Below, piece by piece: positions 19,370 to 64,000 of a stretch of 64,000 nt of DNA. Position 1 is the first letter of the stretch. Each line of letters begins with the position of its first letter. A model generated the notes under the pieces. It was given only the letters and a program-made list of their open reading frames with translations, did not search any database and was not told the DNA's origin. Position numbers and translations under genes: made by a program. The DNA comes from a bacterium (GTDB lineage Bacteria > Patescibacteriota > Minisyncoccia > Phycocordibacterales > UBA2100), in assembly GCA_030647655.1 (NCBI GenBank), contig JAUSJH010000009.1, forward strand, positions 82,196 to 146,195, read 5' to 3'.

Positions 19370-19405
19370 CTCGTTCGTAACTTTACACGAATCTTTCCAC
19401 AACAC

Positions 19406-19430: not shown

Positions 19431-19452
19431 GTGTTTGCAGCGCTGCAAATAA

Positions 19453-32733: not shown

Positions 32734-32879
32734 ATACAGACTGAGAGACCTGGATTAGAACTCGGCAATAGTACACCCCCGAAAGGGGATTTCCACTTCA
32801 TTAAAATCATTCGCGCTTCGCTTGTTGCTGTACAGGCAAACGGCTCATATACCGGTATATGAGCCGTTTGAGTTTGCAG

Positions 32880-33101: not shown

Positions 33102-33140
33102 GTTCCGAGTATAGCAGGATTTGTTTGTTATAATTCCACT

Positions 33141-34883
33141 ATGTATATCTCCGACACGCACCTCAAATCATTTCTCGCCGACGCGGGGCTTGTCTCTCAA
33201 AAGGATTTTGATAATGCGGAAGCGGAGGCCAAACAGACGGGCCAGCCGGTCGGGGACATTTTAACGGCAAAAAATTCGATAGGAGAGGACGAACTGCGCC
33301 GCACCTATGCCTACATTCTCGGCATTCCATTCGTCTCGCTTGCAGGCACCAACATCAAATACGAAACACTCGGCATGATCCCCGAGCCCATCGCGCGGCG
33401 CAACAACATCATCGCCTACAATCACCGTGGCGAAGAGCTCGAGGTCGCCATGCTCGACACCGACGACCTCGCGGCGATTGATTTCATCAAGAAGAAAACG
33501 CACTTGAAGATTTTGCCTCGGCTCACGGACGTGGCATCCATCAAGACCGCACTCAAACTCTATCAGCAGGGGCTCAAAGATAATCTGGGCGATGTCATTG
33601 AACGCGAGACGGCGGCCTTGGAAAAGACTGCGCTCGTCGAAGGAAAAGAAGTAGACCTCAAACAAATAGCGGAAGGGGTGTCCGCGGTGCGCATAGTAGA
33701 TACGCTCATCCGGCACGCGAATGCGCAGAACGCTTCCGACATTCACATCGAGCCTTTGGAGGGTTCGCTCCTCATCCGATATCGTATCGACGGCATCTTG
33801 CATGATGCGATGGAGCTACCCAAGCACGCCGCCGCCGCCATCACGGCGCGCGTAAAGGTCTTGGCCAATATGCGGCTCGACGAGCACCGCTTGCCGCAAG
33901 ACGGGCGTTTCGGCGCGGAGAGCGGCGGCGAGAAGATATCGTTCCGTGTCTCCATCCTTCCCACGTATTACGGCGAGAAAATCGTGATGCGCCTTTTGCG
34001 CGATTCGATATCCGGCTTCACGCTCGAGTCCATCGGCTTCCATGGCACGGGCTTGGAGCGCATGCATGAGGCGATGCGCAAGACGACCGGCATGGTCCTC
34101 TCCTGTGGGCCGACGGGTGCAGGAAAATCCACCACACTGTACACGCTACTCGACATCGTCAATACACCCGACGTCAACATTTCGACCATAGAAGACCCGA
34201 TTGAATACCAGATGAACAGAATCAATCAGACGCAAGTGCGGCCGGAGATAGGATTCACCTTCGCCAATGGCCTGCGCTCTCTTGTGCGCCAAGACCCCGA
34301 CATCGTAATGGTCGGGGAAATCCGCGACAAAGAGACGGCATCACTTGCGATTAATGCCGCGCTTACCGGCCACCTCGTACTTTCGACTCTGCACACGAAT
34401 TCCGCCGCGGGCGCCATCGCGCGCCTGCTCGATATGGGCATCGAGCCGTTCCTCCTCGTCTCTACACTGCGCGTTATCATCGGCCAGCGGCTCGTACGCA
34501 AACTCTCTGCCGACAAAGAAAAATACGAGCTATCGCGCGACGAGCAGAGCCAGCTCGAACGCATCGTTGATGCTGGCAATGTCTTGAGGGCGCTCAAAGA
34601 TGAAAAAGCTGTCGCGAAGGACGCGACGTGGAAAAATATCCCATTTTTCAAATCGAAAGAAGGCGGCCAGAGCCCTTCGGGATACGCAGGCCGGGTCGGC
34701 ATCTACGAAGTCCTACCCGTCACCTCGACCATCAAAGAGCTCGTCATGAAAGGCTCGACAGGAGATGAGATAGAAAAGCAGGCGCGGAGCGAAGGCATGC
34801 TCACGATGAGCGAGGATGGCATCTTCAAAGCCGCGCAGGGTGTGACTACTATTGAAGAAGTGTTGCGTGTGATCACAGAATAA
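33141..34883 (+). CDS. pilB: type IV pilus assembly ATPase PilB/GspE family
   Basis: N-terminal GSPII domain; Walker A GPTGAGKSTT; Asp box; His box; tetracysteine-less C-terminus. Start at MYISDTHL. Confidence 0.9.
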   Translation: MYISDTHLKSFLADAGLVSQKDFDNAEAEAKQTGQPVGDILTAKNSIGEDELRRTYAYILGIPFVSLAGTNIKYETLGMIPEPIARRNNIIAYNHRGEELEVAMLDTDDLAAIDFIKKKTHLKILPRLTDVASIKTALKLYQQGLKDNLGDVIERETAALEKTALVEGKEVDLKQIAEGVSAVRIVDTLIRHANAQNASDIHIEPLEGSLLIRYRIDGILHDAMELPKHAAAAITARVKVLANMRLDEHRLPQDGRFGAESGGEKISFRVSILPTYYGEKIVMRLLRDSISGFTLESIGFHGTGLERMHEAMRKTTGMVLSCGPTGAGKSTTLYTLLDIVNTPDVNISTIEDPIEYQMNRINQTQVRPEIGFTFANGLRSLVRQDPDIVMVGEIRDKETASLAINAALTGHLVLSTLHTNSAAGAIARLLDMGIEPFLLVSTLRVIIGQRLVRKLSADKEKYELSRDEQSQLERIVDAGNVLRALKDEKAVAKDATWKNIPFFKSKEGGQSPSGYAGRVGIYEVLPVTSTIKELVMKGSTGDEIEKQARSEGMLTMSEDGIFKAAQGVTTIEEVLRVITE

Positions 34884-46008: not shown

Positions 46009-47679
46009 ATGCAGATCCTGGTTTCCACACTTCTTTCAAAGCGGGGGATTACTGGAGCCTCTGCGGTTTCTGCTTTTTTGAACCCAGACTATGAACGACA
46101 TACGCACTCACCGTTTTTACTTCTCGGGATGGATCGAGCGGTGGCGCGGCTTCTTTTAGCGATTAGTCAGAATGAACGTATTGCCGTCTATGCAGATTTT
46201 GATTGTGATGGCATTCCCGGTGCCGCGCTTCTCTCCGATTTTTTAAAAAAGATAGGCTACGAGAATTTTGAAGTGTATCTCCCGCATCGCGATAGGGAAG
46301 GATATGGATTCCATACTGATGCGATAGCCGCACTTGCTGCTCGCGATGTGAAACTCATCATTACCGTTGATGTCGGGACGACGGCGCTCGACGCGGTGCA
46401 TTTCGCGAAAGAAAAAGGTGTTGATGTAATTATCACCGACCATCATGAAGTTACCGGCGCCTTGCCGGAAGCGGTTGTTGTGTTGAATCCAAAATTAGGG
46501 GATTACCCATTCCCCCACCTCTGTGGTGCGGCGGTCGCGTTCAAGCTCGTTCAGGCGACGCTTACCGAAGGTAAGCGTCTTAGCCTGCAGGCATTTAAAA
46601 ACATCCCAGACGGTTGGGAGAAATGGCTTCTCGACATGGTCGCCATTGCGACGATTGCCGACATGGTGCCTCTGGTCGGAGAAAATCGCGTCCTCGCGCA
46701 CTGGGGACTTATCGTCCTGCGGAAATCACCGCGCCATGGCATCACCGCGCTCTGCGCAAAATTACGTTTGCGCAAGAGCGAGCTTACCGAAGACGATATC
46801 GGGTTCTCGATAGCGCCACGCATCAATGCCGCCTCACGCATGGACGAGCCGATGTTGGCGCTCCGACTTTTGACCACAGGGGACAGTGATGAAGCGAAAC
46901 AACTCGCCGCGCAATTGGAAAAACTCAACGCGAGCCGCAAGGGAGTTGTCGCTGGCATGGTGAAGCAGGCGCGTTCTCATGTGAAGCAACGTTTTGGCGA
47001 GAGCGATCGTGTCATCGTCTTGGGAAATCCTGAATGGAAGCCTGCGCTCTTGGGGCTCGCGGCGAATTCCATTATGAATGAACGCGGCGGGGTTGTGTGC
47101 TTGTGGGGGCGCGATACGCTCGGCCGTATCAAGGGCTCATGCCGCTCAGACGGCGACGTTTCGCTCACAGAACTTTTCGCGAATGCGGGAGACGTATTTG
47201 AAGAAAGCGGCGGCCACAAGGCCTCCGGCGGCTTCACCGTTTCACATGAGCGCGTGCATACATTGCCGGAAATACTGGCGGCCGCGAGTTCGATGCTCGC
47301 CACCGTTCCGAGTGTTGCTGAAGCTAGCGCACATGATGCGCTTGTTACCCTCTCCGAGGTCACGTCAGCGCTCTTCGCGGAAGTTTCAAAGCTCGCGCCA
47401 TTCGGCGCAGGCAATCCGAAGCCGGTGTTTTTGGTGCGCGGCGCAATCGTCACCGGCATGCAACGTTTCGGGAAGGAAAAGGCGCATCTGGAATTACTGC
47501 TTGAATGTCGAGAAAGCGGCGTGCGGTGTCGCGCATTTGATTTTTTCCGCTCGCCTGAAGATTCCACGCATCTACCCGTGCAGGGGGAGGAGGCAGGTGT
47601 CTTGGCGACGATAGCGCGCGACTCATATCGCGGCGGGCTTGCACTTCGAATTGTGGATGTCGTTCCAGTGTCGGTATAA
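46009..47679 (+). CDS. recJ: single-stranded-DNA-specific exonuclease RecJ
   Basis: DHH motifs (VYADFDCDGI, TVDVGT, ITDHHE) and a DHHA1 region. Confidence 0.85.
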   Translation: MQILVSTLLSKRGITGASAVSAFLNPDYERHTHSPFLLLGMDRAVARLLLAISQNERIAVYADFDCDGIPGAALLSDFLKKIGYENFEVYLPHRDREGYGFHTDAIAALAARDVKLIITVDVGTTALDAVHFAKEKGVDVIITDHHEVTGALPEAVVVLNPKLGDYPFPHLCGAAVAFKLVQATLTEGKRLSLQAFKNIPDGWEKWLLDMVAIATIADMVPLVGENRVLAHWGLIVLRKSPRHGITALCAKLRLRKSELTEDDIGFSIAPRINAASRMDEPMLALRLLTTGDSDEAKQLAAQLEKLNASRKGVVAGMVKQARSHVKQRFGESDRVIVLGNPEWKPALLGLAANSIMNERGGVVCLWGRDTLGRIKGSCRSDGDVSLTELFANAGDVFEESGGHKASGGFTVSHERVHTLPEILAAASSMLATVPSVAEASAHDALVTLSEVTSALFAEVSKLAPFGAGNPKPVFLVRGAIVTGMQRFGKEKAHLELLLECRESGVRCRAFDFFRSPEDSTHLPVQGEEAGVLATIARDSYRGGLALRIVDVVPVSV

Positions 47680-48103: not shown

Positions 48104-48406
48104 ATGCGCGGACAATTCACCGGATTCATTGATTTCATGCGCGAACGTGGCGTCGCGGGCTTCGCCATCGGTTTTATCTTGGGCGGTGCCGCGCAAAAGC
48201 TCGTGCAAGCTTTCATGGACGACATCGTTAATCCCATGCTCGGACTTTTTGGGGGGAGCGGACAGAATCTTGCCGACTACACCATCGGCACATTTAAGGT
48301 CGGCGATTTTATCTCGGTCCTCATCAATTTTTTCATTCTGTGTTTGGTCGTTTATTTGGTTTTCAAAGTCCTGCATCTCGAGAAACTGGATAAATCCAAA
48401 GAATGA
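48104..48406 (+). CDS. mscL: large-conductance mechanosensitive channel MscL
   Basis: FIDFMRERGVAGFAIGFILGGAAQKLVQAFMDDIVNPMLG is the MscL TM1 signature. About 100 aa. Confidence 0.7.
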   Translation: MRGQFTGFIDFMRERGVAGFAIGFILGGAAQKLVQAFMDDIVNPMLGLFGGSGQNLADYTIGTFKVGDFISVLINFFILCLVVYLVFKVLHLEKLDKSKE

Positions 48407-49875
48407 TAGCGAGCCACATCCTCTGGGCGATCGTCGGAGGATTTTTACTCGGGGTTTTCGCGCGCTCGTTCGTGTCACTTGGGAACGCGTTTGTGTTATT
48501 TCTGCTCCTGCTTGCGGGCGGGAGCATGCTCTTAGCACTTCTTGAGCGTGCAAAGATGCGGGGGCTCGTCGTTGCCGCCGTTGCACTCACGGCGTGTGCC
48601 TCAGGGATACTTCGCATGGATGCGGCAGGTCTGCACGGTGCTGCCGAACTCACATCGCGTATTGGAGAAACAATCACGATAGAAGGCCGCGTTATAGATG
48701 AACCCGATGTGCGCGACAGCAACGTGCGACTGCATATGGATACGGGCGATGTCGGTGTGCTCGTGGTAGCGCCTCCGCATACGGAAGTGCGCTACGGAGA
48801 CATTATTCGGACCAAGGGAAAGCTCGACTTGCCAGAAACATTTGATACCAATGACGGCCGACAATTCAATTACCCGATGTTTCTTGCAAAAGACGGGATT
48901 TTGTACACGCTTTCATTTGCGGAAGTTGATGTCACTGGTCACGGCCCGACAAATCCACTGAAAGTCGCGGCGATACGGACGAAACAGAAATATCTCGAAG
49001 GTCTACACCGTGTCTTGCCCGAACCGGAATCCGGCCTCGCGGGCGGCATCACGGTCGGCGACAAGCGGGGAGTGGGAAAAGAGTTTTCAAACATTTTTAT
49101 TACGGTCGGGCTCGTACACATCATCGTGCTCTCCGGATACAACATCACGCTCGTGATGAACGCGGTCGGCATATTTTTCTCGCGGACTCCGCGCCTTGTA
49201 CAGCTCGGTGCGAGTGCCCTCATCATGGTTTTAATCGTGCTTATGGCAGGAGCTCCGGCGAGTGCCTCGCGCGCGGGTACCATGGCTCTGCTCCCGCTCA
49301 TCGCGCGCATGACGGGGCGCCTTTACCTAGCGCTCCGCGCGCTTGGGGTCGTCGCACTCGCGATGGTGCTGTGGAATCCATTTATTCTCACATTCGATCC
49401 TGGATTTCAATTGTCAGTGCTTGCAACACTCGGTCTTGTACTTTTTTCGCCCGTGTTTACAACGTGGCTCCCATGGATACCGGAGAAATTCGCACTGCGC
49501 GAGATTGCCGCCGCAACACTCGGCACGCAGACCAGTGTGTTGCCGCTTCTCTTGTATCAAAATGGTTTGCTTTCTCTCGTCGCGCTTCCGGCAAATCTCC
49601 TCGCGCTCGTCGCAGTGCCCTACGCGATGTTTGCCTCCGTCATTGCCGCAATCGGTGGAATTATTGCAGGACCTCTCGCGATTCCCGTTGCTGCTCCCGC
49701 GCTCGCGCTTCTGTGGTACATCCTCGGCGTTGCAAAATTCTTCGCATCGCTTCCATTCGCCGCCGTATCGGTGAGTGCATTCAGTGTGTGGTGGGTGTTT
49801 ATTGCCTACGCGCTCATGTTTGGTGGATTGTGGTTCCTGCAAAAAAAGCGGCGAGGTTTGAGCCCGCCGCTTTGA
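48403..49875 (+). CDS. comEC: ComEC/Rec2 DNA-internalisation channel, membrane part only (DUF4131 + competence domain, no MBL domain)
   Basis: Competence domain LAGGITVGDKRGV...VGLVHIIVLSGYNITLV...RAGTMALLPL. Ends without a metallo-beta-lactamase domain. Confidence 0.8.
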   Translation: MIASHILWAIVGGFLLGVFARSFVSLGNAFVLFLLLLAGGSMLLALLERAKMRGLVVAAVALTACASGILRMDAAGLHGAAELTSRIGETITIEGRVIDEPDVRDSNVRLHMDTGDVGVLVVAPPHTEVRYGDIIRTKGKLDLPETFDTNDGRQFNYPMFLAKDGILYTLSFAEVDVTGHGPTNPLKVAAIRTKQKYLEGLHRVLPEPESGLAGGITVGDKRGVGKEFSNIFITVGLVHIIVLSGYNITLVMNAVGIFFSRTPRLVQLGASALIMVLIVLMAGAPASASRAGTMALLPLIARMTGRLYLALRALGVVALAMVLWNPFILTFDPGFQLSVLATLGLVLFSPVFTTWLPWIPEKFALREIAAATLGTQTSVLPLLLYQNGLLSLVALPANLLALVAVPYAMFASVIAAIGGIIAGPLAIPVAAPALALLWYILGVAKFFASLPFAAVSVSAFSVWWVFIAYALMFGGLWFLQKKRRGLSPPL

Positions 49876-53985: not shown

Positions 53986-54053
53986 ACGTCGGTGCACTCT
54001 AACGCGGACGCTGGCAAAAGTCAAAATAAAAGAGTAAATGGTATAGTTATTGC

Positions 54054-54677
54054 ATGATAGGTCTAGACGCGATTTTTCTTATCGTCATCATTATCTTCTC
54101 TGCCATCATCCATGAGGTGATGCACGGTGTCGCGGCCGACAAGCTCGGCGACCCGACGGCGCGCTACGCGGGGCGCCTTACGCTTAATCCCATTCCGCAC
54201 CTCGACATGTTCGGCTCAATCATACTGCCCCTTGTGCTCGTACTCTCGCACTCATCCTTTTTCTTCGGATGGGCGAAGCCAGTGCCGTACAATCCGTACA
54301 ATTTACGGCCCGGAAGGTTTAGTGAGGCAATCGTCGCTGGAGCCGGCCCTGCATCCAATATCGTCATCGCGCTCATAGGCGGTCTCATCATCCGCTCGGG
54401 GCTTCTCCCCACAGGAAATGACATCGTATTTCTCATCGTTGTCGTCAATGTCATGCTCTGCATTTTCAACCTCATCCCCGTGCCGCCACTCGACGGCTCC
54501 AAAGTGCTTGCGGCACTTTTACCCCGTGCTTTGTCTGGTAGCTATGAAGGGTGGCGGGCACGTATGGAAATGAACCCGTTTCTCGGCATAGGCATTGTTC
54601 TACTAATAGTGTTTCTTGCCGGCGGCGCCTTCGGCAATCTCATCTACGCGCTCGCGAGCGCGATTGCGGGGGTGTGA
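54054..54677 (+). CDS. site-2 protease family (M50) zinc metalloprotease
   Basis: HEVMHG zinc motif in a TM helix; NLIPVPPLDGSKV (LDG motif). Confidence 0.8.
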   Translation: MIGLDAIFLIVIIIFSAIIHEVMHGVAADKLGDPTARYAGRLTLNPIPHLDMFGSIILPLVLVLSHSSFFFGWAKPVPYNPYNLRPGRFSEAIVAGAGPASNIVIALIGGLIIRSGLLPTGNDIVFLIVVVNVMLCIFNLIPVPPLDGSKVLAALLPRALSGSYEGWRARMEMNPFLGIGIVLLIVFLAGGAFGNLIYALASAIAGV

Positions 54678-54712
54678 TCATTGTCCCCATTAATGATGCT
54701 AAACTTTATCTC

Positions 54713-55249
54713 ATGCGAGGAGGAAAAGAGAAGCTGAGAGTTGGTGAAAAGGCGAAGGCTCTTGCCGCCGCCGGCATCGCCGCGCTCGGAATAACTGGTG
54801 CCACGGACAAGTCTCCAGCGACCGCACAAACACACGATCCCAGTCTACGGTTCGAGCTTTCTCGGGAGTTTGTAACTCCGCTTACCCGGATGAGTTCCGG
54901 TGTTGATGCTTTTCTTAAGAGACACAAAGATAAAATTTTCTTTAATGCTGAAACAGGAGAGATTACGGTTCGCATCGCAAATGGTATAAGCAAAGGCAAA
55001 GGTCCTGTTGATCGAGAGAGGGTGAGTGAGGTAATGGTTCGGGCGAGTCAGGACGGAAAGATAATCTCCCTCAATTATCAAATTAAAGAGGCGGGCCGGA
55101 TAATCGGTATAGAAGTTCTCAATATTCGAGAGGAGAATAACGGAGAGCTAACCGTTGATGGAGCTCTAGACTTCGAAACAGGGTACGACGAAATTATAGA
55201 AGACACGACGGTCGTTCCGGGGGGAGAGGAGGGTACACGGCCGCGATAG
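54713..55249 (+). CDS. hypothetical secreted/exported protein
   Basis: Signal-like AAAGIAALGITGA. Start placed at MRGGKEK; the track ORF carries a spurious 5' extension from 54551. Confidence 0.4.
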   Translation: MRGGKEKLRVGEKAKALAAAGIAALGITGATDKSPATAQTHDPSLRFELSREFVTPLTRMSSGVDAFLKRHKDKIFFNAETGEITVRIANGISKGKGPVDRERVSEVMVRASQDGKIISLNYQIKEAGRIIGIEVLNIREENNGELTVDGALDFETGYDEIIEDTTVVPGGEEGTRPR

Positions 55250-55337
55250 AGAGTTGCGTCGGGGGCGGTTTCATAGTACATTTCTCGAGCTCCCATTGGG
55301 AGTTTTAATTTGCCTTTCGACAGGCTCAAGCTAAGCA

Positions 55338-55754
55338 ATGTCTACGATAAATCAACTTACGCGTAAGGGGCGCACGCAAAAGACGTGGCGCACGAAAACC
55401 ATCGCGCTTTCGCGCGGCTTCAACACGCTTAAGAACCGTCCATCTTTTTATCCCGCACCCTTCAAGCGCGGTGTTTGCACCCGTGTAACGACGAAAACCC
55501 CGCGCAAACCGAACTCCGCTATCCGCAAAATCGCCCGCGTGCGCCTCACCAACGGCATGGAAGTTACCGCCTACATTCCCGGCGAAGGACACACTCTGCA
55601 AGAGCACTCGGTAGTACTTTTGCGCGGCGGCCGCGTAAAAGACATCGGCGTGCGCTATACCATCGTTCGTGGCAAATTGGATGCGACGGGTGTTGAGAAG
55701 CGCCGCCGTGGCCGCTCGCTCTACGGCGCGAAGAAGCCGAAAGCCGCCAAGTAA
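55338..55754 (+). CDS. rpsL: 30S ribosomal protein S12
   Basis: PTINQL-like start ...[60 protein letters not shown]. Confidence 0.95.
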
Positions 55755-55759
55755 TTTTT

Positions 55760-56221
55760 ATGCGACGCCCCACAAAAAATAGAAAACAGCCCCAGCCGGA
55801 CGAAGTGTACGGCTCGTTCAAAGTCGCAAAGCTCATCAATTATGTGATGGAACGCGGAAAGAAGGACACAGCGCGCAAAATCGTCTACAAAGTGATGGAC
55901 GAATTGAAGAAAGAAGGGGACCCACTCGTAATTCTTGAAGAAGCGCTCGAGAAGGCATCTCCATCGGTGGAGGTGCGCTCGCGTCGCGTTGGTGGTGCCA
56001 ACTATCAGGTGCCGCGCGAAGTGAATCCCGCTCGCAAAATGTCTCTAGGCATGCGTTGGATTGTGGAAGCGGCCGAAGGCACCAAGGGCAAGCCGATGCA
56101 TGAATCGCTCCTCGCCGAAATCAAAGCCGCGCACAAAGGCGAAGGCGCCGCGGTGACCAAAAAAGAAACGACGCATCGCATGGCCGAGGCCAACAAAGCT
56201 TTTGCCCACTTCGCGTGGTAG
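55760..56221 (+). CDS. rpsG: 30S ribosomal protein S7
   Basis: KFVNYVMERGKK...ARKIVY...VEVRSRRVGGANYQVP. Confidence 0.95.
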   Translation: MRRPTKNRKQPQPDEVYGSFKVAKLINYVMERGKKDTARKIVYKVMDELKKEGDPLVILEEALEKASPSVEVRSRRVGGANYQVPREVNPARKMSLGMRWIVEAAEGTKGKPMHESLLAEIKAAHKGEGAAVTKKETTHRMAEANKAFAHFAW

Positions 56222-56230
56222 AATGAACGT

Positions 56231-56644
56231 ATGAGATTCGCACTGGCAGTGCTCTTGCTAACCATCGCATCTTCTTTATTTTCGTGGGTATTTGGATTCG
56301 GCGGTTCAGCGATTATAATGTTCTTACTCCCAACATTCGCGCCCACGACAAGCGCGTACCTTGCCGGCGTGCTCCTTATAGATATAGCGAGTACGGTACT
56401 TAGCTGTTGGCTTGCCGTTTTTTCGGTAACAAAAATGGGGCAACTAAAGTCTATCGATTATCCCAAAAGACTTGCCGGCGCTGTGACCTTGGTGTTTGTC
56501 GCGGTTGATTTCCTCTTTATTCTCCCGGTGGTCATAGCTGGTGGAAAGCCGTCGACGTTTACCCTCGCTTCGGTCGGGTTGTCGCTCGTTGTCACGTATT
56601 TCACCCTTCGTTTCTTTCTTGTCCGTCTCAAATCCCAAGGTTAA
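56231..56644 (+). CDS. hypothetical membrane protein (4 TM)
   Basis: Hydrophobic helices. The stop codon lies within a palindrome at the IS boundary. Confidence 0.45.
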   Translation: MRFALAVLLLTIASSLFSWVFGFGGSAIIMFLLPTFAPTTSAYLAGVLLIDIASTVLSCWLAVFSVTKMGQLKSIDYPKRLAGAVTLVFVAVDFLFILPVVIAGGKPSTFTLASVGLSLVVTYFTLRFFLVRLKSQG

Positions 56645-57400
56645 ACCTTCGCCCACTTTAAACCCCTGAGGTTAAACCTCGGGAGGTAGGTCTGCGTAGT
56701 ATGCTCGGGCATCTCGCAGCATTGCGCCGAAACTTGGCAGCGCATCGTAGTATTCCTTGATTGAAGCAGTTGTGATACGGCCTAGCCCTGTCTTGTTGGC
56801 ATGGAAGAATTCATCCACGCTCGCATACGGATAGGCGAGGATTTCCCGGCGGAGCATGCGGATGTCGCATTTCCCACGTTTCCATTCCGGCGCAAAAAGC
56901 TCTGCCGGATTCAGGAGAATATATGGCACGACCTGCTTTAAGTACCGGTCGTCGCGAATATGCTTTGCCTTGTATGTTCCGCTAAATAAGGAACCGGTCC
57001 GGTCGTTTCTGCTGTTGAAATACATCGTGTAACCAGTGAACACTTTTTGCATGAATCGCGCAATGCCATTGTCTTGCAACTGCCGGAGCAACAGGTGAAC
57101 GTGCGTCGGCATGAGAGCAAACGCGCCAATATCAACAAGTTGCTCCCCGCGGTCGACATGTTTGTCGGCGAGTATGGACTGCAAATCGACCTTGAATCTT
57201 TCCGAGACCGTCTCCGCCTTCGTCCCATTGCTTAGATACAACAAACTCATGAACCGTTCATAATCGCGACGGTGGCCAAACACCCTCCGCTTATCGACAC
57301 CTCTGTTGTAGCAGTGGTACCACTCATCGGTGACGCACGGTTCTCGTGTTGCCATGCTCTCCAGTATACCACCATCTCCCGAGGTTAAACCTCGGGAGAT
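56633..57400 (-). mobile_element. IS200-like / RAYT-type element: single Y1 HuH transposase gene bounded by palindromic hairpins
   Basis: Left palindromes AAGGTTAAACCTT (56637-56649) and CCTGAGGTTAAACCTCGGG (56665-56683). Right perfect 25-nt palindrome TCTCCCGAGGTTAAACCTCGGGAGA (57375-57399). Confidence 0.7.
56672..57355 (-). CDS. IS200/RAYT-family Y1 (HuH) transposase
   Basis: HuH motif PTHVHLLL; catalytic Tyr context GSLFSGTYKAKH; N-terminus WYHCYNRGVDKRRVF. Confidence 0.8.
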   Translation of the reverse strand: MATREPCVTDEWYHCYNRGVDKRRVFGHRRDYERFMSLLYLSNGTKAETVSERFKVDLQSILADKHVDRGEQLVDIGAFALMPTHVHLLLRQLQDNGIARFMQKVFTGYTMYFNSRNDRTGSLFSGTYKAKHIRDDRYLKQVVPYILLNPAELFAPEWKRGKCDIRMLRREILAYPYASVDEFFHANKTGLGRITTASIKEYYDALPSFGAMLRDARAYYADLPPEV

Positions 57401-57505
57401 TAGGGTTACGCTATTCAGTTGGTAAGTAATTGAGAAGCTGGCCGTCTACATAAGCAGGTAGCATACGCTACCGTCGAATTTATCACGCTAGGTTAATCAT
57501 AATAT

Positions 57506-57970
57506 ATGACAATTACAAGAACGTACACTATTGGTGCAGTTGCACTCGCCATTATCCTGCTTTTCTCCGGCGTCGCTATCGCGCAAACAGGCGCAGAAAA
57601 TGAACTTCTTGCCGCAAAGGCAAGCGCGAGCGATGCGGGCGTCCCTGTAGAATGGGATGGAGACAATCCCGTAAAGAGCGCGAACGATACGGGTCTCCCT
57701 GTAGAGATGCAGTGGGATGGATGGGATGTAACAAAGAAGGAAGCACTGCAGGCTGAACTTAAGGCAAGCGCGAACGATACGACACAAAACAGCGACCCTG
57801 CAGAATGGAATGGACCCAGCAAGGAAGGATCGGGTTCAGAGCCAAATCCGAACGATGCAGAGTTTGATTGGAGCAAGAAGGGGGCATCCGATTCAGAGGT
57901 AAGCGCAAACAGCACGACACCAAATGGCGGCACCGTAGAATGGAATGGACCCGATAAGGAAGCACAGTAA
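57506..57970 (+). CDS. small secreted repeat protein (EW[DN]G repeats)
   Basis: Signal peptide AIILLFSGVAIAQTG. Five imperfect repeats: VEWDGDNP, MQWDGWD, AEWNGPSKE, AEFDWSKK, VEWNGPDKE. Confidence 0.5.
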   Translation: MTITRTYTIGAVALAIILLFSGVAIAQTGAENELLAAKASASDAGVPVEWDGDNPVKSANDTGLPVEMQWDGWDVTKKEALQAELKASANDTTQNSDPAEWNGPSKEGSGSEPNPNDAEFDWSKKGASDSEVSANSTTPNGGTVEWNGPDKEAQ

Positions 57971-58019
57971 TCTGGGCATCCTAGGCGGATTGAAGAATCC
58001 ACTCGATTATTAAGGCATA

Positions 58020-58052
58020 GTAACGTCCGAAGGTGAAACCTTCGGACGTTAC
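58020..58052. repeat. perfect 15-bp-stem palindrome GTAACGTCCGAAGGT-gaa-ACCTTCGGACGTTAC (REP-like, shares GGTGAAACC core with IS-end palindromes)
   Basis: Seen directly, about 100 nt upstream of fusA. Confidence 0.6.
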
Positions 58053-58104
58053 CACTTCGCGTGGCAAGTTTGCATTTCCGCGGATTTCCGCTACATTACT
58101 GGGA

Positions 58105-58124
58105 CCTGCCTGCCGGCAGGCAGG
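58105..58124. repeat. perfect palindrome CCTGCCTGCCGGCAGGCAGG (second copy; first at 10221-10240)
   Basis: Seen directly, followed by a T-run. Terminator-like for the 57506-57970 gene. Confidence 0.55.
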
Positions 58125-58154
58125 CGCCTTTGGGCGATTATTTTTTGAAATTCT

Positions 58155-60296
58155 ATGGCACGAGATTATCCTCTAGAGAAAGTGAGAAATTTTGGCATAA
58201 TCGCGCACATCGATGCGGGTAAAACGACCACGTCGGAGCGCATCCTCTACTACACCGGTGAGAGTCACAAAATAGGCGAGGTACACGAGGGTGACACGGT
58301 GACCGACTGGATGGAGCAGGAGCGCGAGCGCGGCATCACCATCACCGCCGCCGCCATCACGTGTTTCTGGAATCCCAGCTACATGGGCGCGGACCTTTCA
58401 CAGAAAGTCCGCTTCAACATTATTGATACCCCCGGACACATCGACTTCACGTCCGAGGTGAAGCGAAGCATGCGCGTACTCGACGGCGCGGTCGTTGTCT
58501 TCGATGGTGTCGCGGGCGTGGAGCCGCAGAGCGAGACCAACTGGCGCTACGCGGAGGAAGCCAACGTGCCACGCGTCTGCTACATCAACAAGCTCGATCG
58601 TACCGGCGCATCATTTGAAAAATCATTTGCGAGTATTTTGGATAGGCTCTCCACAAAAGCGGTGCGCGTGCAAATCCCGATCGGTCTTGAAGATAAATTT
58701 GAAGGTGTCGTCGATCTTCTCACGATGAAGGCCTATCACTTCGAGGGGGAGAAAGGTGAAAAAGTGGTCGCGGGCGAGATCCCCGAAAATGTGAAAGCGG
58801 AAGCGGAAAAATACCGCAAAGAACTCATCGAGAAAATCGTCGAACATGACGATGCTCTAATGCATGAGTATCTTGAAGGAAGAGAGATACCGGTCGAGAT
58901 GTTGAAAAAGACGCTACGCAAAGCGGTGATTGCAAACGGTATTTTCCCCGTCCTAACAGGTTCGTCGCTCAAGAACAAGGGCGTACAGCTTGTACTCGAC
59001 GCGGTCGTCGATTACCTCCCATCGCCACTGGATATGCCTCCGGCAAAAGGCACGAACACTGACACGGGTGCCGAGGAGACCAGGCCCGCGAGCGACGAGG
59101 CGCCGTTCGCCGCTCTCATTTTTAAACTGCAGGTAGACCCGTTCGTCGGCGCTCTCTCGTTCTTCCGCGTCTATTCCGGTTCGATTGCCGCGGGCGATGA
59201 CATTTACGATTCCGCGAACAACAAAAAAGAGCGGCTCGGACGCATCGTGCGCTTGCAAGCTGACAAGCGCGAGGACGTGAAGATAGTCTACGCGGGCGAG
59301 ATTGCCGCCGCTGTCGGCTTGAAAGAAGTGAAGATTGGGCATACGCTCTGTGACCCCGCGCACCCAATCGCGCTAGAGTCCATTGTCTTCCCAGAGCCGG
59401 TGGTTTCGATGCGCATCGAGCCCAACACCAAAGCCGACCAGGAAAGAATGGGCATCGCGCTCTCGCGCCTTTCGGATGAGGACCCAACATTTCGTATCAA
59501 ATCAGATCCGGAAACGATGGAAACCATCGTTTCCGGCATGGGTGAGCTTCACCTCGAGATCATCGTCGAGCGCATGAAGCGCGAATTTGGCGTGCAAGCT
59601 TCGACGGGGAAGCCGCAGGTCGCCTATCGCGAGACCATTCAAGGCACGTCGGACGTGGAGTACAAACACATCAAGCAGACGGGCGGCCGCGGCCAGTATG
59701 GGCACGTGAAAATCCGCATCAAACCGCTCGAGCCATTGATTGAAGGAAAGAAAATCAAGAACAACGTCGAGCGCGAGGACCACTTTGAATTCATCAACAG
59801 CGTCAGGGGAGGCGTCATTCCACAGGAGTTCATCCAGCCGGTCAAAAAGGGCATCAAGGAGGCGATGGATCGCGGAGTACTCGCAGGATTTCCCGTGGTG
59901 GATATTTCCGTCGAGCTCTACGACGGCTCGGCCCACGATGTGGACTCATCCGAAATCGCCTTCAAGCTCGCGGCTATCAATGCAATGCAGGAAGCGATGC
60001 AAAAAGCGAAACCGGTACTGCTCGAACCTATTATGAAATTGGAGGTCGTGACGCCCGAGAAATTCATGGGCGATGTCACCGGCTCCATCAACTCAAAACG
60101 CGGAGCAATAGAGGCGATGGGCGAGCGTGGACAAGCACGCGTCATAACCGCCAAAGTCCCGCTCTCCGAGCTTTTCGGATTCACGACGCAATTGCGCTCT
60201 CTCACCGAAGGCCGAGCCGTGCCCAACCTCGAATTCAGCCACTACGCCATCGTCCCGAAATCTGCCGCCGACCTCGTCATTGCTGCGAGGAAGTAG
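58155..60296 (+). CDS. fusA: translation elongation factor G
   Basis: 713 aa: MARDYPLEKVRNFGIIAHIDAGKTTTSERILYYTG... through ...AIVPKSAADLVIAARK. Confidence 0.97.
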   Translation: MARDYPLEKVRNFGIIAHIDAGKTTTSERILYYTGESHKIGEVHEGDTVTDWMEQERERGITITAAAITCFWNPSYMGADLSQKVRFNIIDTPGHIDFTSEVKRSMRVLDGAVVVFDGVAGVEPQSETNWRYAEEANVPRVCYINKLDRTGASFEKSFASILDRLSTKAVRVQIPIGLEDKFEGVVDLLTMKAYHFEGEKGEKVVAGEIPENVKAEAEKYRKELIEKIVEHDDALMHEYLEGREIPVEMLKKTLRKAVIANGIFPVLTGSSLKNKGVQLVLDAVVDYLPSPLDMPPAKGTNTDTGAEETRPASDEAPFAALIFKLQVDPFVGALSFFRVYSGSIAAGDDIYDSANNKKERLGRIVRLQADKREDVKIVYAGEIAAAVGLKEVKIGHTLCDPAHPIALESIVFPEPVVSMRIEPNTKADQERMGIALSRLSDEDPTFRIKSDPETMETIVSGMGELHLEIIVERMKREFGVQASTGKPQVAYRETIQGTSDVEYKHIKQTGGRGQYGHVKIRIKPLEPLIEGKKIKNNVEREDHFEFINSVRGGVIPQEFIQPVKKGIKEAMDRGVLAGFPVVDISVELYDGSAHDVDSSEIAFKLAAINAMQEAMQKAKPVLLEPIMKLEVVTPEKFMGDVTGSINSKRGAIEAMGERGQARVITAKVPLSELFGFTTQLRSLTEGRAVPNLEFSHYAIVPKSAADLVIAARK

Positions 60297-60310
60297 GGTA
60301 TACTTTCGGC

Positions 60311-61312
60311 ATGCCTCCCGAAGAACGTGCGCCACAAGTTCCGCAGTTGCAGACCTCTCCGAATTCACACAGTACGGCTATCGCGCTCGTGATTGCTCTT
60401 GCGTCCATAAGTATTGGCGGGGTCGCGTATGCATATCGTGCGCCTTTACTGGAAATACTGCATCGGACACAAAGTCCAGCAGGTACCGTTGCGACAGAAA
60501 GTCCCGTGGATACTATTCCTCCAGCCCAAAGCCTTACAAATACTCCCACGGCAACTTCTACACATGCGCCCATAGATACAATCGCAAAAGTAAATCCCAT
60601 GCCGGAGACTGCAGGCACTGTGATGCCTTTATTTGAATACCGCCACACGGCGCGGCTACAAAAAGCTACAACTCGCGTCCCTAACACTATCCGCGTGCAG
60701 CTATATGGCCCGGCTAAACTTAGCGGATATGATTCGGATGGCAATTTTGTCACGAGAGATTCGATACTCGATCTTTGCAAAGGCATCTGTTCGGGCAAGG
60801 AAAAGCTGTCGTTTGAACTTCTTCAACAAGGAGTCGCCGATGAGCCACTGGCGAACATTGCACTTGAGAACGTACAAAAGGAGTACGATGCGTACGTCCA
60901 AAATGGAAAAGTCGGGATGTTTTACTCATCAGTTATAAGCGTATCGCTTCCCGCGAAGCCGCCTCAATCGGAAAGCTACCCGTACCCGATTTGGAGTTCG
61001 TCCTTCATTCCGTACGTTTTTTCTGACTTAAATGATAATGGTGTCTGGGATTCAGAGAAAAGTGTGGGTGGTGCTACCGACTATTTAATGTTTGTGCGAG
61101 AAAATGAAAAAAGGCCAGAGTTCGTGTTGGGATGGAATTTTGCATATGCTTCGGGCGATCAAGAAAAAGCCGCCGTGGTCAAGTTCAAAGATGATCCACG
61201 TGGACTGCAAGAATATCGGAAATCATATGATTCCGTCATATTCCAGATTCCGGTTCTTTCGACTAAAGAGTTGCTATTTTCGACAGATCTCTCCAATGTC
61301 CCGCTCCAGTAG
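60311..61312 (+). CDS. hypothetical membrane-anchored extracytoplasmic protein (cassette 1 after fusA)
   Basis: 333 aa with an N-terminal TM (AIALVIALASISIGGVAYAY), a Thr/Pro linker and a globular domain of unknown family. Starts 14 nt after the fusA stop. Confidence 0.5.
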   Translation: MPPEERAPQVPQLQTSPNSHSTAIALVIALASISIGGVAYAYRAPLLEILHRTQSPAGTVATESPVDTIPPAQSLTNTPTATSTHAPIDTIAKVNPMPETAGTVMPLFEYRHTARLQKATTRVPNTIRVQLYGPAKLSGYDSDGNFVTRDSILDLCKGICSGKEKLSFELLQQGVADEPLANIALENVQKEYDAYVQNGKVGMFYSSVISVSLPAKPPQSESYPYPIWSSSFIPYVFSDLNDNGVWDSEKSVGGATDYLMFVRENEKRPEFVLGWNFAYASGDQEKAAVVKFKDDPRGLQEYRKSYDSVIFQIPVLSTKELLFSTDLSNVPLQ

Positions 61313-61340
61313 TCTCGGGCACACCACCCTGTAACTAGCT

Positions 61341-61430
61341 GACGGCCGCGCCGTGCCCAACCTCGAATTTTCCCACTACGCAATTGTTCCGAAATCTTCT
61401 GCCGACCTTGTCATCGCGGCGAGGAAGTAG
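61341..61430 (+). repeat. degenerate copy of fusA 3' end (copy 2)
   Basis: Aligns to 60208-60296 with roughly 85% identity. In frame it re-encodes DGRAVPNLEFSHYAIVPKSSADLVIAARK plus a stop. Confidence 0.8.
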
Positions 61431-61466
61431 CTTGACATATATCTAAGCTATATATAAACTATACCA

Positions 61467-61733
61467 ATGACCACGCAAGTTGTATTCAATATAGATCCGA
61501 AGATAAAAGCGCGCGCGATGAAGCGTGCCAAGAGCGAGGGTATACCGTTTGCATCCGTTCTTAAATTCGCTACGAAGGCTTTCGCCGACGGCGCACTTTC
61601 ACTTGAGATGGTTGAAGAGATCAGACCCGAAAAATTGCAACTGATGGAGCGGGCGTCACGAGCCCTCGATCAGGGTAAGGGAAAGAGGTTTAATTCGGTG
61701 GCGGAACTTCGTAAACATATACGGAGCCTGTAA
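61467..61733 (+). CDS. type II antitoxin (RelB/DinJ- or RHH-like)
   Basis: MTTQVVFNIDPKIKARAMKRAKSEGIPFASVLKFATKAFADG, with TTGACA-type promoter upstream (61432-61437) and the toxin gene 2 nt downstream. Confidence 0.6.
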   Translation: MTTQVVFNIDPKIKARAMKRAKSEGIPFASVLKFATKAFADGALSLEMVEEIRPEKLQLMERASRALDQGKGKRFNSVAELRKHIRSL

Positions 61734-61735
61734 CT

Positions 61736-62017
61736 ATGACGGATTGTCCGCGCTATACCATCGCGTATGATTCCGCATTTGATCGCATTCTCAAAAAACT
61801 GAAGCGCCGCGACCCGGCGCTTCTCACGGCACTTGATCTCGGGATTGAGAAAATATTGAAAGAGCCGATGCTTGGGAAACCGTTGAAAAATGTGTTGCGG
61901 AATTCTCGGAGACTCCATATCGAAGGGTCGTTTGTCCTTCTCTATGAAATATACGAATGCCAAGTTCGTTTGCTCGATTTTGACCATCACGACCGGATAT
62001 ACAGGAAATACTCTTAA
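61736..62017 (+). CDS. type II toxin, RelE/ParE family
   Basis: LGKPLKNVLRNSRRLHIEGSFVLLYEIYECQVRLLDFDHHDRIYRK. Confidence 0.7.
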   Translation: MTDCPRYTIAYDSAFDRILKKLKRRDPALLTALDLGIEKILKEPMLGKPLKNVLRNSRRLHIEGSFVLLYEIYECQVRLLDFDHHDRIYRKYS

Positions 62018-62031
62018 CATCTTCGAACCCT

Positions 62032-62209
62032 TCGGCTTCACCACACAGCTCCGCTCTCTCACCGAAGGCTCCCGATTTTCATATCGTTACTGCGATATAG
62101 AAAAGCGCAGTCCCCTTTGGGGGCCGCGCGGTACCCAATCTCGAGTTCTCTCACTACGCAATTGTTCCGAAATCTGCCGCCGACCTCGTCATCGCGGCGA
62201 GGAAGTAAA
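62032..62209 (+). repeat. composite degenerate copy of fusA 3' end (copy 3) interrupted by a 52-nt insert (62071-62122)
   Basis: 62032-62070 matches fusA 60174-60212 (FGFTTQLRSLTEG). 62123-62209 matches fusA 60211-60296 (VPNLEFSHYAIVPKSAADLVIAARK plus a stop). The insert carries two small hairpins. Confidence 0.8.
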
Positions 62210-62298
62210 ATACCGCGGCTGAACCTCGACAATCAGGGGGCTTTGCGATATCAGGCCTCTGTAATAGTATGAGGTCTTAGCCGTCTAAAAGGCACACT

Positions 62299-62814
62299 AT
62301 GCAAAAACCATACACATGGGTAATCGGACTTCTCATTGTCGCGTTTGTAGGATATGGCGTCTATGCGCTCAGCTCTAAAAACACCACTCCTCCCGGAGGA
62401 CAGGCATGTACGCAGGAAGCAAAGCAGTGCCCCGACGGCTCGTATGTCAGTCGCGTCGCACCCTCGTGCGAATTCGCGGCGTGCCCATCGACAGTGGGCT
62501 ACGGCACCATACAAGGGAGGGTAACGCTCGGGCCCACCTGCCCCGTGGAAACTGTGCCGCCAGACCCATCATGCGCCACCCAACCCTACCCCTACCAGAC
62601 TACTGTAACGGCTACGGGCGGCGGGCGTAGTGTGACGGTACCGACCGACGCCGCGGGCTCTTTCCGCGTCTCGCTTACTCCCGGCACTTACACTGTCTCT
62701 GCGGCCGGAGGCAACAACACGTTTCCTTCGTGTGCAAAAGCGGAACAAAGTGTTGAGCTCAAAGCAGGACAGACCACGACCGTGGATATCTCCTGCGATA
62801 CCGGCATCCGATAA
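62299..62814 (+). CDS. small membrane-anchored secreted protein, Cys-rich, hypothetical
   Basis: N-terminal TM, then a Cys-rich region and a Thr/Gly-rich beta domain. Promoter-like TTGCGA/TAGTAT upstream. Confidence 0.5.
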   Translation: MQKPYTWVIGLLIVAFVGYGVYALSSKNTTPPGGQACTQEAKQCPDGSYVSRVAPSCEFAACPSTVGYGTIQGRVTLGPTCPVETVPPDPSCATQPYPYQTTVTATGGGRSVTVPTDAAGSFRVSLTPGTYTVSAAGGNNTFPSCAKAEQSVELKAGQTTTVDISCDTGIR

Positions 62815-62907
62815 TAAATAACCAGGGCGGGCTGTTCCAGAGAGGCCCTAGACACAACTGCGTGGCGTGCCACCATGGAGAGATTATGAATAGGTCCCTC
62901 ATTCTCC

Positions 62908-64000
62908 ATGTTTAAAAAAATCGCGTTCGCGGGTCTTGGCCTTGTTTTACTCGCGTCTCCGGTACTCGCCTCCGCCGATGTACTCTCCGACCTGCGGGCA
63001 CAGCTCGAAGGCCTCCTCTCACAGCTCTCGCAATTGCAATCGCAGCTTTCGGCGGTCGCAACCACCGCCACTCCCAGACCAAGCTGCACCCTAAGAGCTT
63101 CACCGAGCACAGTGCAATCAGGCAGGGGCTCTCGTATTTCGTGGACCACTAGGAACGCGACTTGGGGCACGATCAATCAGGGAATCGGTAGCATGACACC
63201 GATTGCGAGCAGCTCACGGGCAATTAGCGCAGGCATAACACAGACGACCGCGTACACAGCTACTATAAGAGGTCTCGGGGGCAGTGCTACGTGTTCAACG
63301 ACCGTGACAGTTACGAGCGGAGGCACAAGTCCTTCAATCACGATCACGTCTCCGAATGGCGGACAGACGTTCAATCTCGGGAACCTTCTGACAATCCGTT
63401 GGGTGGCTAGGAATCTGCCGGTCAGAAATCAGATCTGCACATATCTTGTAGATTCAGCGGCCCATCAGTTTGCCTTTCCGGCGGAGGGTGCATGCAGGAC
63501 CGATGAAGCGCCGGGCGCGTTAGCTGTCTCGGGCACTTTGGTGCGGAGGGCAGGATATGACCTCGCTCCGGGTGCGTACCGGATCTTTGCACGTATCCTC
63601 GGAGCAGATCCGGGCAACGGAAGGGATCGTCCGGTCCTTGCAGAGGATCAGGAGCCAATTGGAATTACAGTCGCAAGCACCACGTCCAACCTCACGCTCA
63701 CCGCCTCGCCGACATCCGGCTCGGTACCGCTCGCTGTACACTTCAGCGCCAGAAATATGCCGGATGCGAGCAGGTGGAATTATTCCGTCGACTATAAAGA
63801 CGGACACGCAGAACAGTTGGATTCTCATGGTGCCACGGGGACCTTCTCCGCAGACACAAATCACACCTATACTGCGGCGGGCACGTATTTGGCAGTCCTG
63901 AACAGATGTTGGACGGGTTGCCAGACGCTTGGCACCACGACGATTACGGTTACGAGCTCGTCGAGCGGCACGATTGTCGTCGCTCCCGGTCAGCAGCCTG
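62908..64000 (+). CDS. secreted protein, partial (runs off window end)
   Basis: Signal peptide MFKKIAFAGLGLVLLASPVLASA, coiled segment, then Thr/Ser-rich beta-rich domains. No stop before 64000, so not in the ORF track. Confidence 0.5.
   Translation, partial: MFKKIAFAGLGLVLLASPVLASADVLSDLRAQLEGLLSQLSQLQSQLSAVATTATPRPSCTLRASPSTVQSGRGSRISWTTRNATWGTINQGIGSMTPIASSSRAISAGITQTTAYTATIRGLGGSATCSTTVTVTSGGTSPSITITSPNGGQTFNLGNLLTIRWVARNLPVRNQICTYLVDSAAHQFAFPAEGACRTDEAPGALAVSGTLVRRAGYDLAPGAYRIFARILGADPGNGRDRPVLAEDQEPIGITVASTTSNLTLTASPTSGSVPLAVHFSARNMPDASRWNYSVDYKDGHAEQLDSHGATGTFSADTNHTYTAAGTYLAVLNRCWTGCQTLGTTTITVTSSSSGTIVVAPGQQP

Follow-up and report, generated by a model that had tools for sequence, protein, structure and literature searches.

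A cassette array divided by silent copies of the fusA 3' end in a Patescibacteria genome, possibly formed by sequential gene-end displacement without a dedicated integrase

We analyzed a DNA stretch of 64,000 nucleotides (hereafter, the window) from a metagenome-assembled genome of the Patescibacteriota lineage UBA2100 (contig JAUSJH010000009.1, positions 82,196 to 146,195). In this window, the fusA gene, which encodes elongation factor G (EF-G), is intact and is followed by cassettes of accessory genes that are divided from one another by silent copies of the fusA 3' end. The order along the forward strand is R0 / cassette 1 / R1 / cassette 2 / E2-R2 / cassette 3, where R0 is the working end of fusA and R1 and E2-R2 are the silent copies, and the array continues beyond the window end. 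We consider, with moderate confidence, that this is an accretion array which arose by sequential displacement of the fusA 3' end, without a dedicated integrase.

The fusA gene (58155-60296; this and all array features below are on the forward strand) was taken from the list of open reading frames (ORFs). It encodes 713 amino acids and carries every EF-G Pfam domain (GTP_EFTU, EFG_III, EFG_IV and EFG_C). Alignment and substitution analysis defined its final 87 nt as R0 (60210-60296), encoding GRAVPNLEFSHYAIVPKSAADLVIAARK before the stop. R1 (61344-61430) is a silent copy of this tail that keeps the stop and has no in-frame upstream start. Silent copy 2 is longer than R1 (about 137 nt vs. 87 nt) and consists of two halves. 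The upstream half, E2 (62020-62069; FGFTTQLRSLTEG), starts 3 nt past the stop codon of a toxin gene and is 80% identical to E0, the fusA segment at 60163-60212 (codons ...SELFGFTTQLRSLTEG), which thus recurs 5' of R2. The downstream half, R2 (62122-62208), ends with the stop TAA. The two halves are parted by a 52-nt insert (62070-62121), which was recognized in the alignment, contains a 12-bp hairpin (fold z = -2.3) and shifts the reading frame between E2 and R2.

The copies were recovered by three independent methods, i.e., a repeat finder, MAFFT and self-BLAST, with BLAST E-values among them of 1e-20 to 1e-25. The observation of an earlier note, made from the sequence alone, that the fusA end recurs twice downstream is therefore confirmed, and the positions are refined to 61344-61430 and 62122-62208 plus 62020-62069. 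R0, R1 and R2 are the sole significant dispersed direct repeats within the window. The identity is 86% between R1 and R0, 84-85% between R2 and R0, and 89.5% between R2 and R1, and the longest exact runs common to two copies are 20-26 nt. The stop codon lies at the same position in R0, R1 and R2, and the similarity ends exactly there. Logan contig SRR13727527_42930 (locus L081) is 100% identical to the window at 59937-64000 (4,064 nt) and reaches 3.7 kb further. The array is not peculiar to one assembly, although L081 may rest on the same reads as the metagenome-assembled genome. The metagenomic source raises the question of an assembly chimera that joined strain haplotypes via the fusA tail. 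With the Logan contig matching, exact runs of at most 26 nt, junctions at the edge of the similarity and not inside it, and the same architecture in many unrelated assemblies, we regard such a chimera as extremely improbable.

The substitution pattern of the copies is that of coding sequence. In the three pairwise comparisons, 12, 14 and 10 of the 87 positions are mismatched, and 9/12, 12/14 and 9/10 of these mismatches fall on third codon positions. The R1 peptide, GRAVPNLEFSHYAIVPKSSADLVIAARK up to the stop, has one A-to-S change relative to fusA, and the R2 peptide is that of fusA. We simulated this comparison by placing equal numbers of random substitutions in R0 (50,000 trials). Not one of the 50,000 trials gave one or no amino-acid change, the simulated mean being 8.2-8.8. 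The third-position bias is also present between R1 and R2, both of which are now untranslatable (R1 is startless, and copy 2 is frame-broken). Since 10-14 of 87 nucleotides differ with only 0-1 amino-acid changes, R1 vs. R2 included, each copy has diverged under coding selection. Most simply, judging from the sequences, each would once have served as a working fusA end, in different genomes. The roughly 15% divergence with frame and stop kept that had been noted before thus stands (84-89.5% identity, 0-1 amino-acid changes, stops retained). The same pattern was found in nine further stubs that we measured in relatives, from fusA and rpsG, whose mismatches to the working gene end are mainly at the third codon position.

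The synonymous-only divergence, which also holds between the two silent copies, indicates that the copies are different alleles and not in-situ duplicates. Duplication in place, either as a long target-site duplication or in tandem, followed by decay or by maintenance of the copies through gene conversion or a present function, is thus very unlikely. Neutral decay predicts that about 60-75% of differences change an amino acid, against the 0-1 of 10-14 observed, also for R1 vs. R2. The copies, startless or frame-broken, show no RNA or single-stranded DNA structure, and no known RNA family was matched in Rfam across 54000-64000. Duplication was already disfavored for the window on these grounds; it draws some support from relatives, where young fusA tail pairs of 96-98% identity (L005, L079) are indistinguishable from fresh duplications and where some copies may have a function, to judge from a conserved mini-ORF that begins with a copied fusA 5' end. 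Long target duplications are also known (PMC2853133).

The donors of the tails are plausibly related to the host at about the genus level. The encoded tail, IVPKS[A/S]ADLVIAARK, was found in none of about 160 sampled relatives. Related lineages whose synonymous differences are saturated often have one common tail peptide, and therefore such donors are plausible from the sequence comparison. The host itself is Paceibacteria/Kaiserbacteria-like. The closest EF-G proteins found have 84-90% identity, and a scan of metagenome contigs revealed no genome closer than 90% EF-G identity.

A diversity-generating retroelement (DGR), whose template and variable repeats also form diverged pairs, was rejected as the source of the copies. 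The mismatches of the fusA copies are of all types and not confined to adenines, and no reverse transcriptase was found by Pfam. DGR pairs do occur in relatives near the str operon, and we give this explanation, like the chimera, only a minimal probability. Three DGR-like repeat pairs were seen, in L041 (6959-7076 and 7414-7531), L056 (6133-6252 and 6590-6709) and L059 (6267-6386 and 6654-6773). Three unrelated ORFs, each located about 3.5 kb before fusA, have their 3' ends repeated 270-340 nt downstream. Almost all mismatches within these pairs are adenines in the downstream copy, which is the signature of variable and template repeats and is unlike the fusA copies.

The three cassettes differ in content. 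Cassette 1 (60297-61343) contains one ORF (60311-61312) for a membrane-anchored orphan protein of 333 amino acids, as had been described. The ORF begins 15 nt past the fusA stop and no terminator was found between the two; cassette 1 is probably read through from fusA. The protein has no Pfam or NCBIfam match, and a search of 5.8 billion proteins returned only itself and one partial homologue. The G+C content is 46-50% in cassettes 1 and 2, 54-60% in fusA and 56-62% in cassette 3.

Cassette 2 (61431-62019) is a toxin-antitoxin unit, in which a promoter, a candidate antitoxin gene and a toxin gene follow one another. The promoter, TTGACA-17-TAAACT at 61432-61460, is the best match of the region in a promoter scan (10/12). 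The toxin (61736-62017, 93 amino acids) is of the RelE/YafQ/ParE type and matches Pfam ParE_toxin PF05016 (29.4 bits, cut-off 23; 1.3e-6) and the NCBIfam YafQ/RelE models TIGR00053 (3e-14, under the model cut-off) and TIGR02385 (2e-5). The candidate antitoxin (61467-61733, 88 amino acids) has no family match, and is kept together with the toxin and the promoter in four loci. With a small toxin that has a family match, a small candidate antitoxin gene directly 5' of it and one promoter, cassette 2 has the makeup of a type II toxin-antitoxin module. Of the RelB/RelE pair behind a TTGACA promoter that had been proposed, the promoter and a toxin of the RelE/YafQ/ParE superfamily with an 88-residue partner are thus supported, while the antitoxin family is not.

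Cassette 3 (62209-64000) runs off the window. It encodes an anchored protein of 171 amino acids with a CarboxypepD_reg domain (62299-62814; Pfam) and, from 62908, a PKD-type surface protein (Pfam). This second protein has 1615 amino acids in full (NCBI protein P0003), and L081 extends its ORF to 1570 amino acids. A paralogue that shares its signal peptide is encoded at another place on this NCBI contig of 155,854 nt. The secreted proteins reported earlier for cassette 3 are therefore present, with CarboxypepD_reg and PKD domains, whereas the promoter of its own was not detected in the promoter scan.

The toxin-antitoxin cassette also occurs in other contexts. From the promoter to the toxin stop (61431-62017), it has 66-68% nucleotide identity over about 590 nt with units in L163, L164 and L165, and the promoter core TTGACATATA is invariant across all four. 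The similarity ends sharply on both sides and the flanks are unrelated, and the cassette is a discrete conserved unit of about 590 nt. In L163, the homologous unit is located immediately upstream of tuf. In L164, it is located upstream of rpe, the gene for ribulose-phosphate 3-epimerase. The real rpe starts right past the toxin gene, and a partial, diverged copy of the rpe 5' end is found upstream of the block that contains the unit (5301-5461 vs. 6305-6674). Because one cassette family adjoins stubs of different genes, a fusA-specific integrase is argued against. In L046, a toxin with 43% identity is located between fusA and tuf. This gap (6328-10063) contains four toxin-antitoxin pairs, the toxin being part of them, and small membrane proteins without fusA stubs, and three of its cassettes are parted by 65-78-nt repeats that consist of a terminator hairpin and a TTGACA promoter.

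Relatives of the source genome show how the region behind fusA varies. Among 91 relatives with both fusA and tuf on the locus, tuf is still downstream, and the fusA-tuf spacer is shorter than 300 nt in 29, 0.3-1 kb in 29, 1-3 kb in 16 and 3-9.5 kb in 17, the shortest being about 100 nt. The spacer contents are unrelated between genomes and include surface proteins, toxin-antitoxin pairs and unknowns. Since the spacer is short in many relatives and its contents are unrelated, the ground state is that fusA and tuf are adjacent, and the spacer acts as a hotspot of insertion in which empty sites can be recognized. Such empty sites at the fusA-tuf junction, for which a comparison of related genomes had been suggested, are seen in the 29 of 91 relatives with the shortest spacers, and distant relatives have a single tail and a spacer of 100-300 nt. 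The claim that fusA is uncoupled from tuf in the window is probably wrong as stated. With tuf downstream at about 100 nt to 9.5 kb in 91 relatives and the array continuing past the window, tuf in the source genome is, by this comparison, probably simply further downstream.

Silent copies of the fusA tail were found in ten of the relatives' loci (L005, L011, L013, L044, L048, L079, L089, L113, L129 and L144). These copies begin 8 to at least 59 codons ahead of the stop, and in L011 and L048 they take in the terminator behind the gene. In L089, which belongs to the clade of the window, two fusA tails are present: the first comes after a MazF toxin, and the second after the VapC (PIN) cassette that follows. 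Some relatives have stubs without cargo 48-200 nt behind fusA. In L048 (12095-12364), the tail and terminator are repeated in tandem, with no cargo. In L079 (12107-12319), a 140-nt insert with two strong hairpins and no ORF lies between fusA and a 96%-identical tail copy of 73 nt. The repeated insertion at the fusA 3' end that had been proposed, with each piece bringing its own gene end, is therefore supported both by the synonymous-only divergence and by the same architecture in other Patescibacteria.

Stubs are not restricted to the fusA 3' end. A survey with the C-terminal 40 residues of 2,180 ORFs gave 26 matches, of which fusA tails were by far the commonest. The others were rpsG (L023), rplC (L058), the three DGR-like pairs and, for the rest, paralogous surface proteins. 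DNA alignment and an N-terminal survey revealed further rpsG stubs in L002 and L086. The stub in L002 directly abuts or overlaps the stop codon of a RelE-type toxin, mirroring copy 2 of the window, which lies 3 nt past the toxin stop. Stubs of 5' ends were found for fusA in seven loci, for rplC in one and for rpe in L164, and no tuf 5' stubs were seen.

The fusA 5' copies include a short ORF located 8-140 nt before fusA, whose first 14-21 codons copy the EF-G N-terminus (M.RDYPLEKVRNFGI[IV]AP..). It was seen in L002 (7480-7665), L086 (7810-8007), L092 (7818-7880), L044 (2237-2278), L091 (7930-8004), L123 (1352-1396) and L144 (105-203), and it is absent from the window. The copies in L002, L086 and L092 are closer to one another than to their own fusA, with differences mostly at codon position 3, and the remainder of the 61-65-residue ORF is also similar between L002 and L086. 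Judging from this conservation, the mini-ORF may be a translated leader and not a relic.

These observations suggest the following course of events. A DNA fragment from a diverged relative would contain the distal part of the donor fusA and the cargo behind it, such as a toxin-antitoxin module or surface-protein genes. The incoming fragment would pair by homology with the resident fusA, a good anchor through its high conservation, and the far, non-homologous end of the fragment would be attached by an illegitimate join within the final 90-140 nt of that gene. As a result, fusA would stay intact with the donor tail, the cargo would be gained, and the resident tail would be pushed downstream as a silent stub. 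Repetition of such events would stack cassettes, with the newest beside fusA. In the window, cassette 3 with R2 would be the oldest; the toxin-antitoxin unit with R1 would have come next, joining at -137, and the 333-residue gene with R0 would have come last, joining at -87. The 5'-end stubs would be mirror-image events anchored in the downstream gene. We infer this order of events, as well as uptake by transformation, RecA-dependent anchoring, the illegitimate distal join and the arrival of R0 with cassette 1. The window encodes ComEC, RecJ and a PilB-type pilus ATPase, in keeping with such uptake, and Saccharibacteria have been shown to be naturally competent (PMC10633639, PMC10187176). There are also precedents for the recombination itself. 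In type VI secretion system (T6SS) and Rhs loci, gene 3' ends are displaced, which has been attributed to homology-facilitated illegitimate recombination (PMC5361080), and restriction-modification units insert with long target duplications (PMC2853133).

We favor sequential displacement because it accounts for the topology, the synonymous divergence, the start of a stub right past the cassette, the variable stub lengths and the failure to find a recombinase. Stubs of more than one highly conserved gene, from 5' as well as 3' ends, also fit this explanation. As in known displacement arrays, the gene itself is intact, and behind it lie orphaned copies of its 3' region, with cassette genes ahead of each copy. 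In the fusA arrays, the junctions vary in position (87 vs. about 137 nt in the window; 8 to at least 59 codons in relatives), and no recombinase was found.

Several points weigh against this explanation. No donor and empty-recipient pair of more than 95% identity was available for comparison. In experiments, homology-facilitated illegitimate recombination is a rare event. Two independent junctions, the beginning of R1 and the 52-nt insert, coincide at GGC|GGCCG, which fits a preferred site better than random illegitimate joins. The strong stub excess at fusA relative to neighboring conserved genes could point to a targeting activity. In addition, the upstream EF-G mini-ORF is apparently conserved from genome to genome, and some stubs may thus be more than passive relics. 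Finally, a single weak integrase match could sit outside the 25 families listed in the domain searches described below, a gap covered only by a motif scan, and the right end of the array, the classical place for an integrase, lies beyond the sequence read.

The earlier note attributed the array to site-specific integrative elements, each with an attP mimic of the gene end. This was not borne out: no integrase was found, the copies vary in length, and stubs occur also at rpsG, rplC, rpe and the fusA 5' end. No recombinase domain was found in the ORFs of cassettes 1 and 2 or in those of the initial 5.5 kb of cassette 3, a span that covers 60297-64000 and the 3.7 kb beyond it in L081. The inspection beyond 64000 that had been suggested thus yielded no recombinase in those 3.7 kb. 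Pfam searches of 118 ORFs 3' of fusA in 44 relatives and of 72 ORFs from the clade of the window gave no integrase family with matches to two or more proteins. These batch searches show the 25 commonest families per run, and thus exclude recurrent integrases but not single ones. Individual scans of 20 ORFs from stub-carrying loci gave no integrase, and none was found beside about 12 similar arrays in relatives. The window and 161 loci were also scanned heuristically for motifs of tyrosine and serine recombinases, and the sole match was the Xer-type gene at 11615-12529, 48 kb upstream of the array. No inverted repeats flanking the cassettes were detected in the repeat search, the cassette ORFs contain no Cas1 or PolB domains by Pfam, and a search of viral contigs for a mimic of the fusA tail gave one irrelevant 47% match.

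A modified form of this proposal, which we consider possible but doubtful, is that site-specific elements accreted in tandem at an attB site in the fusA 3' end and that the cassettes are decayed, integrase-less elements resembling cis-mobilizable elements. The recombinase would act in trans, e.g., the Xer-type enzyme, or be encoded at the distal array end, which lies beyond the sequence read. The topology is that of attL and attR with 3'-end replacement, where fusA stays intact and the tails are functional mimics, and two junctions coincide at GGC|GGCCG. Integrase-less accretion is well documented (PMC5704250), and aEF-2, the archaeal orthologue of EF-G, is a known 3'-end target of casposons (PMC4046053). 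However, no integrase was detected in or beside the roughly 12 arrays in relatives and no recurrent one among the 190 ORFs 3' of fusA. The stubs are of a different length in each case (8 to at least 59 codons), with two lengths within the window array itself. The stubs at rpsG, rplC, rpe and 5' ends would need several site-specific systems, and the toxin-antitoxin homologue in L164 lies beside the stub of a different gene. By eye, no dif-like motif is visible in the R copies, which also lack single-stranded DNA structure.

A transposase is encoded near the array, between rpsG and fusA, and belongs to the Y1/IS200-like (REP-associated) type (56672-57355, reverse strand). It was rejected as the driver: only 4 of 80 relatives have a homologue no more than 10 kb away from fusA, which is about the chance level by a rough estimate. 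This family is not known to make long duplications.

Propagation without any recombinase of their own has also to be considered for the cassettes. A cassette with one tail could loop out as a circle when its flanking tails recombine, and could then enter any related genome by a single RecA-mediated (Campbell-type) crossover guided by homology to the fusA tail, which would thereby be duplicated. This cycle would explain the flanking direct repeats, the downstream copy that starts exactly at the cassette end, the synonymous tails, the integrase-less units down to 0.6 kb and the addiction modules as cargo, all without an illegitimate join. A similar life cycle has been proposed for restriction-modification units with long flanking repeats (PMC2853133). 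Nevertheless, we consider it unlikely. The identical runs of just 20-26 nt are marginal for a RecA crossover, transformation imports linear single strands, and neither the origin of the first tail-carrying circle nor the cargo-free stubs 48-200 nt behind fusA are explained.

The coincident junctions at GGC|GGCCG deserve separate attention. The 52-nt insert in copy 2 is flanked on both sides by a GGC triplet, and its position corresponds to the point in fusA where R1 begins. The insert has no second occurrence in the window and none in the loci of 80 relatives, and a repeated miniature element was rejected on this basis. That both junctions fall at the same position is a hint of a preferred site, although copy 2 as a whole begins 50 nt further upstream. 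Another proposal, quite unlikely in our view, is that cassettes dock at the fusA tail as part of a dedicated, unrecognized cassette platform of Patescibacteria, integron-like in logic. The newest cassette would be placed beside the strong str-operon promoter, the tail copies would be the recombination sites, and gain and loss would be catalyzed by a trans-acting or novel recombinase or by cassette products. Its footprints would be a common GGC|GGCCG junction and a stub excess at fusA, a reading of these two marks about which we are equally reserved. The stub excess could reflect the conservation of fusA and its position at the operon end, or a targeting activity.

An integron in the strict sense was rejected: the head gene is fusA, no IntI or attI was found, and the R copies show no attC-like folding, as they fold no better than shuffled sequences (z of 0.06 to 1.65 and -0.49 to 1.65 for the two strands). 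Integron cassette arrays are strings of small units without mobility genes behind a strong promoter, often with toxin-antitoxin modules. In contrast, the fusA array has no attC-like hairpin in its repeats, and cassette 2 has its own promoter. Neisseria minimal mobile elements are variable cassettes between two conserved genes that are swapped by transformation, with no gene-end duplications.

Among known systems, the displacement arrays of Rhs, contact-dependent inhibition (CDI) and T6SS loci, including the immunity-gene arrays of Vibrio cholerae, are similar in several respects (PMC5361080). The anchor is in the conserved 5' part of a gene, a new 3' end arrives with downstream genes, and the old 3' end is shifted downstream with its partner genes, leaving strings of orphaned 3' regions without an integrase. 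However, the displaced ends of those loci encode different toxins, and selection acts on the change of the gene end, whereas the fusA array involves a housekeeping gene, tails that encode the same peptide, unrelated cargo and short stubs of 87-137 nt.

The array also resembles the restriction-modification units that insert with long target duplications (PMC2853133). These are small addiction-type units with variable direct repeats of tens to hundreds of base pairs and no mobility gene; several of the repeats overlap gene 3' ends, and the hosts are mostly naturally competent bacteria. The fusA array correspondingly has repeats of 87-137 nt and no mobility genes, and cassettes 1 and 2 are 0.6-1.0 kb long. 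The restriction-modification repeats are nearly identical (44/46, 417/423), which fits duplication at insertion, whereas the fusA repeats are 84-90% identical with coding-type divergence. The fusA array further differs in its toxin-antitoxin and surface-protein cargo and in the stacking of several units.

In the tandem accretion of integrative and conjugative, integrative and mobilizable, and cis-mobilizable elements at tRNA or protein genes (PMC5704250), the target 3' end is replaced, degenerate gene-end repeats lie between the elements, and some members lack an integrase. Unlike the fusA array and its relatives, where neither was found, those systems have a defined core site and an adjacent integrase in some members or strains. 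The casposons in the 3'-distal region of aEF-2 in Thaumarchaeota (PMC4046053) use the end of an orthologous translation-factor gene as a docking point and leave the gene intact. They differ from the fusA array in that they encode Cas1 and PolB and have terminal inverted repeats and short target-site duplications, features that the fusA array does not show. Literature searches revealed no account of a hotspot at the fusA 3' end, either in Patescibacteria or in other organisms. Composite islands of the staphylococcal cassette chromosome accrete at the 3' end of rlmH/orfX, and casposon target-site duplications are about 14-15 bp. From known displacement and long-duplication systems, the fusA locus differs in its housekeeping anchor, in displaced ends with the same peptide, in the unrelated cargo and in repeats that are diverged alleles.

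Other features of the window were also noted. The str operon is broken a second time, between rpsG (55760-56221) and fusA. The insertions there (56231-57970) encode a membrane protein of 137 amino acids, the Y1/IS200-like transposase and a secreted protein of 154 amino acids with internal repeats, and no rpsG or fusA stub was found in this interval. A perfect 15-bp hairpin is located at 58020-58052. The same segment encodes DNA-uptake and recombination equipment, i.e., ComEC (48403-49875), RecJ (46009-47679), a PilB-type type IV pilus ATPase (33051-34883) and the Xer-type tyrosine recombinase (11615-12529), which is the single such enzyme in the window. A perfect 34-nt palindrome lies at 32837-32870, and a 91%-matching 35-nt palindrome (19401-19435) lies just past tRNA-Gly (19299-19369).

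Patescibacteria have tiny genomes with few recognizable mobile elements, and little is understood of the ways in which they acquire accessory genes. The locus described here and about a dozen alike suggest an integrase-free route, in which conserved housekeeping genes serve as landing pads for DNA of relatives. The silent allelic stubs would record each event and are easily searched, and could therefore be used to map recombination hotspots, to date and order acquisitions and to identify donors in uncultured lineages. If a dedicated mechanism were instead at work, it would be a new kind of cassette platform. The cargo, i.e., toxin-antitoxin modules and large surface proteins, belongs to gene classes expected to matter for the epibiotic lifestyle.

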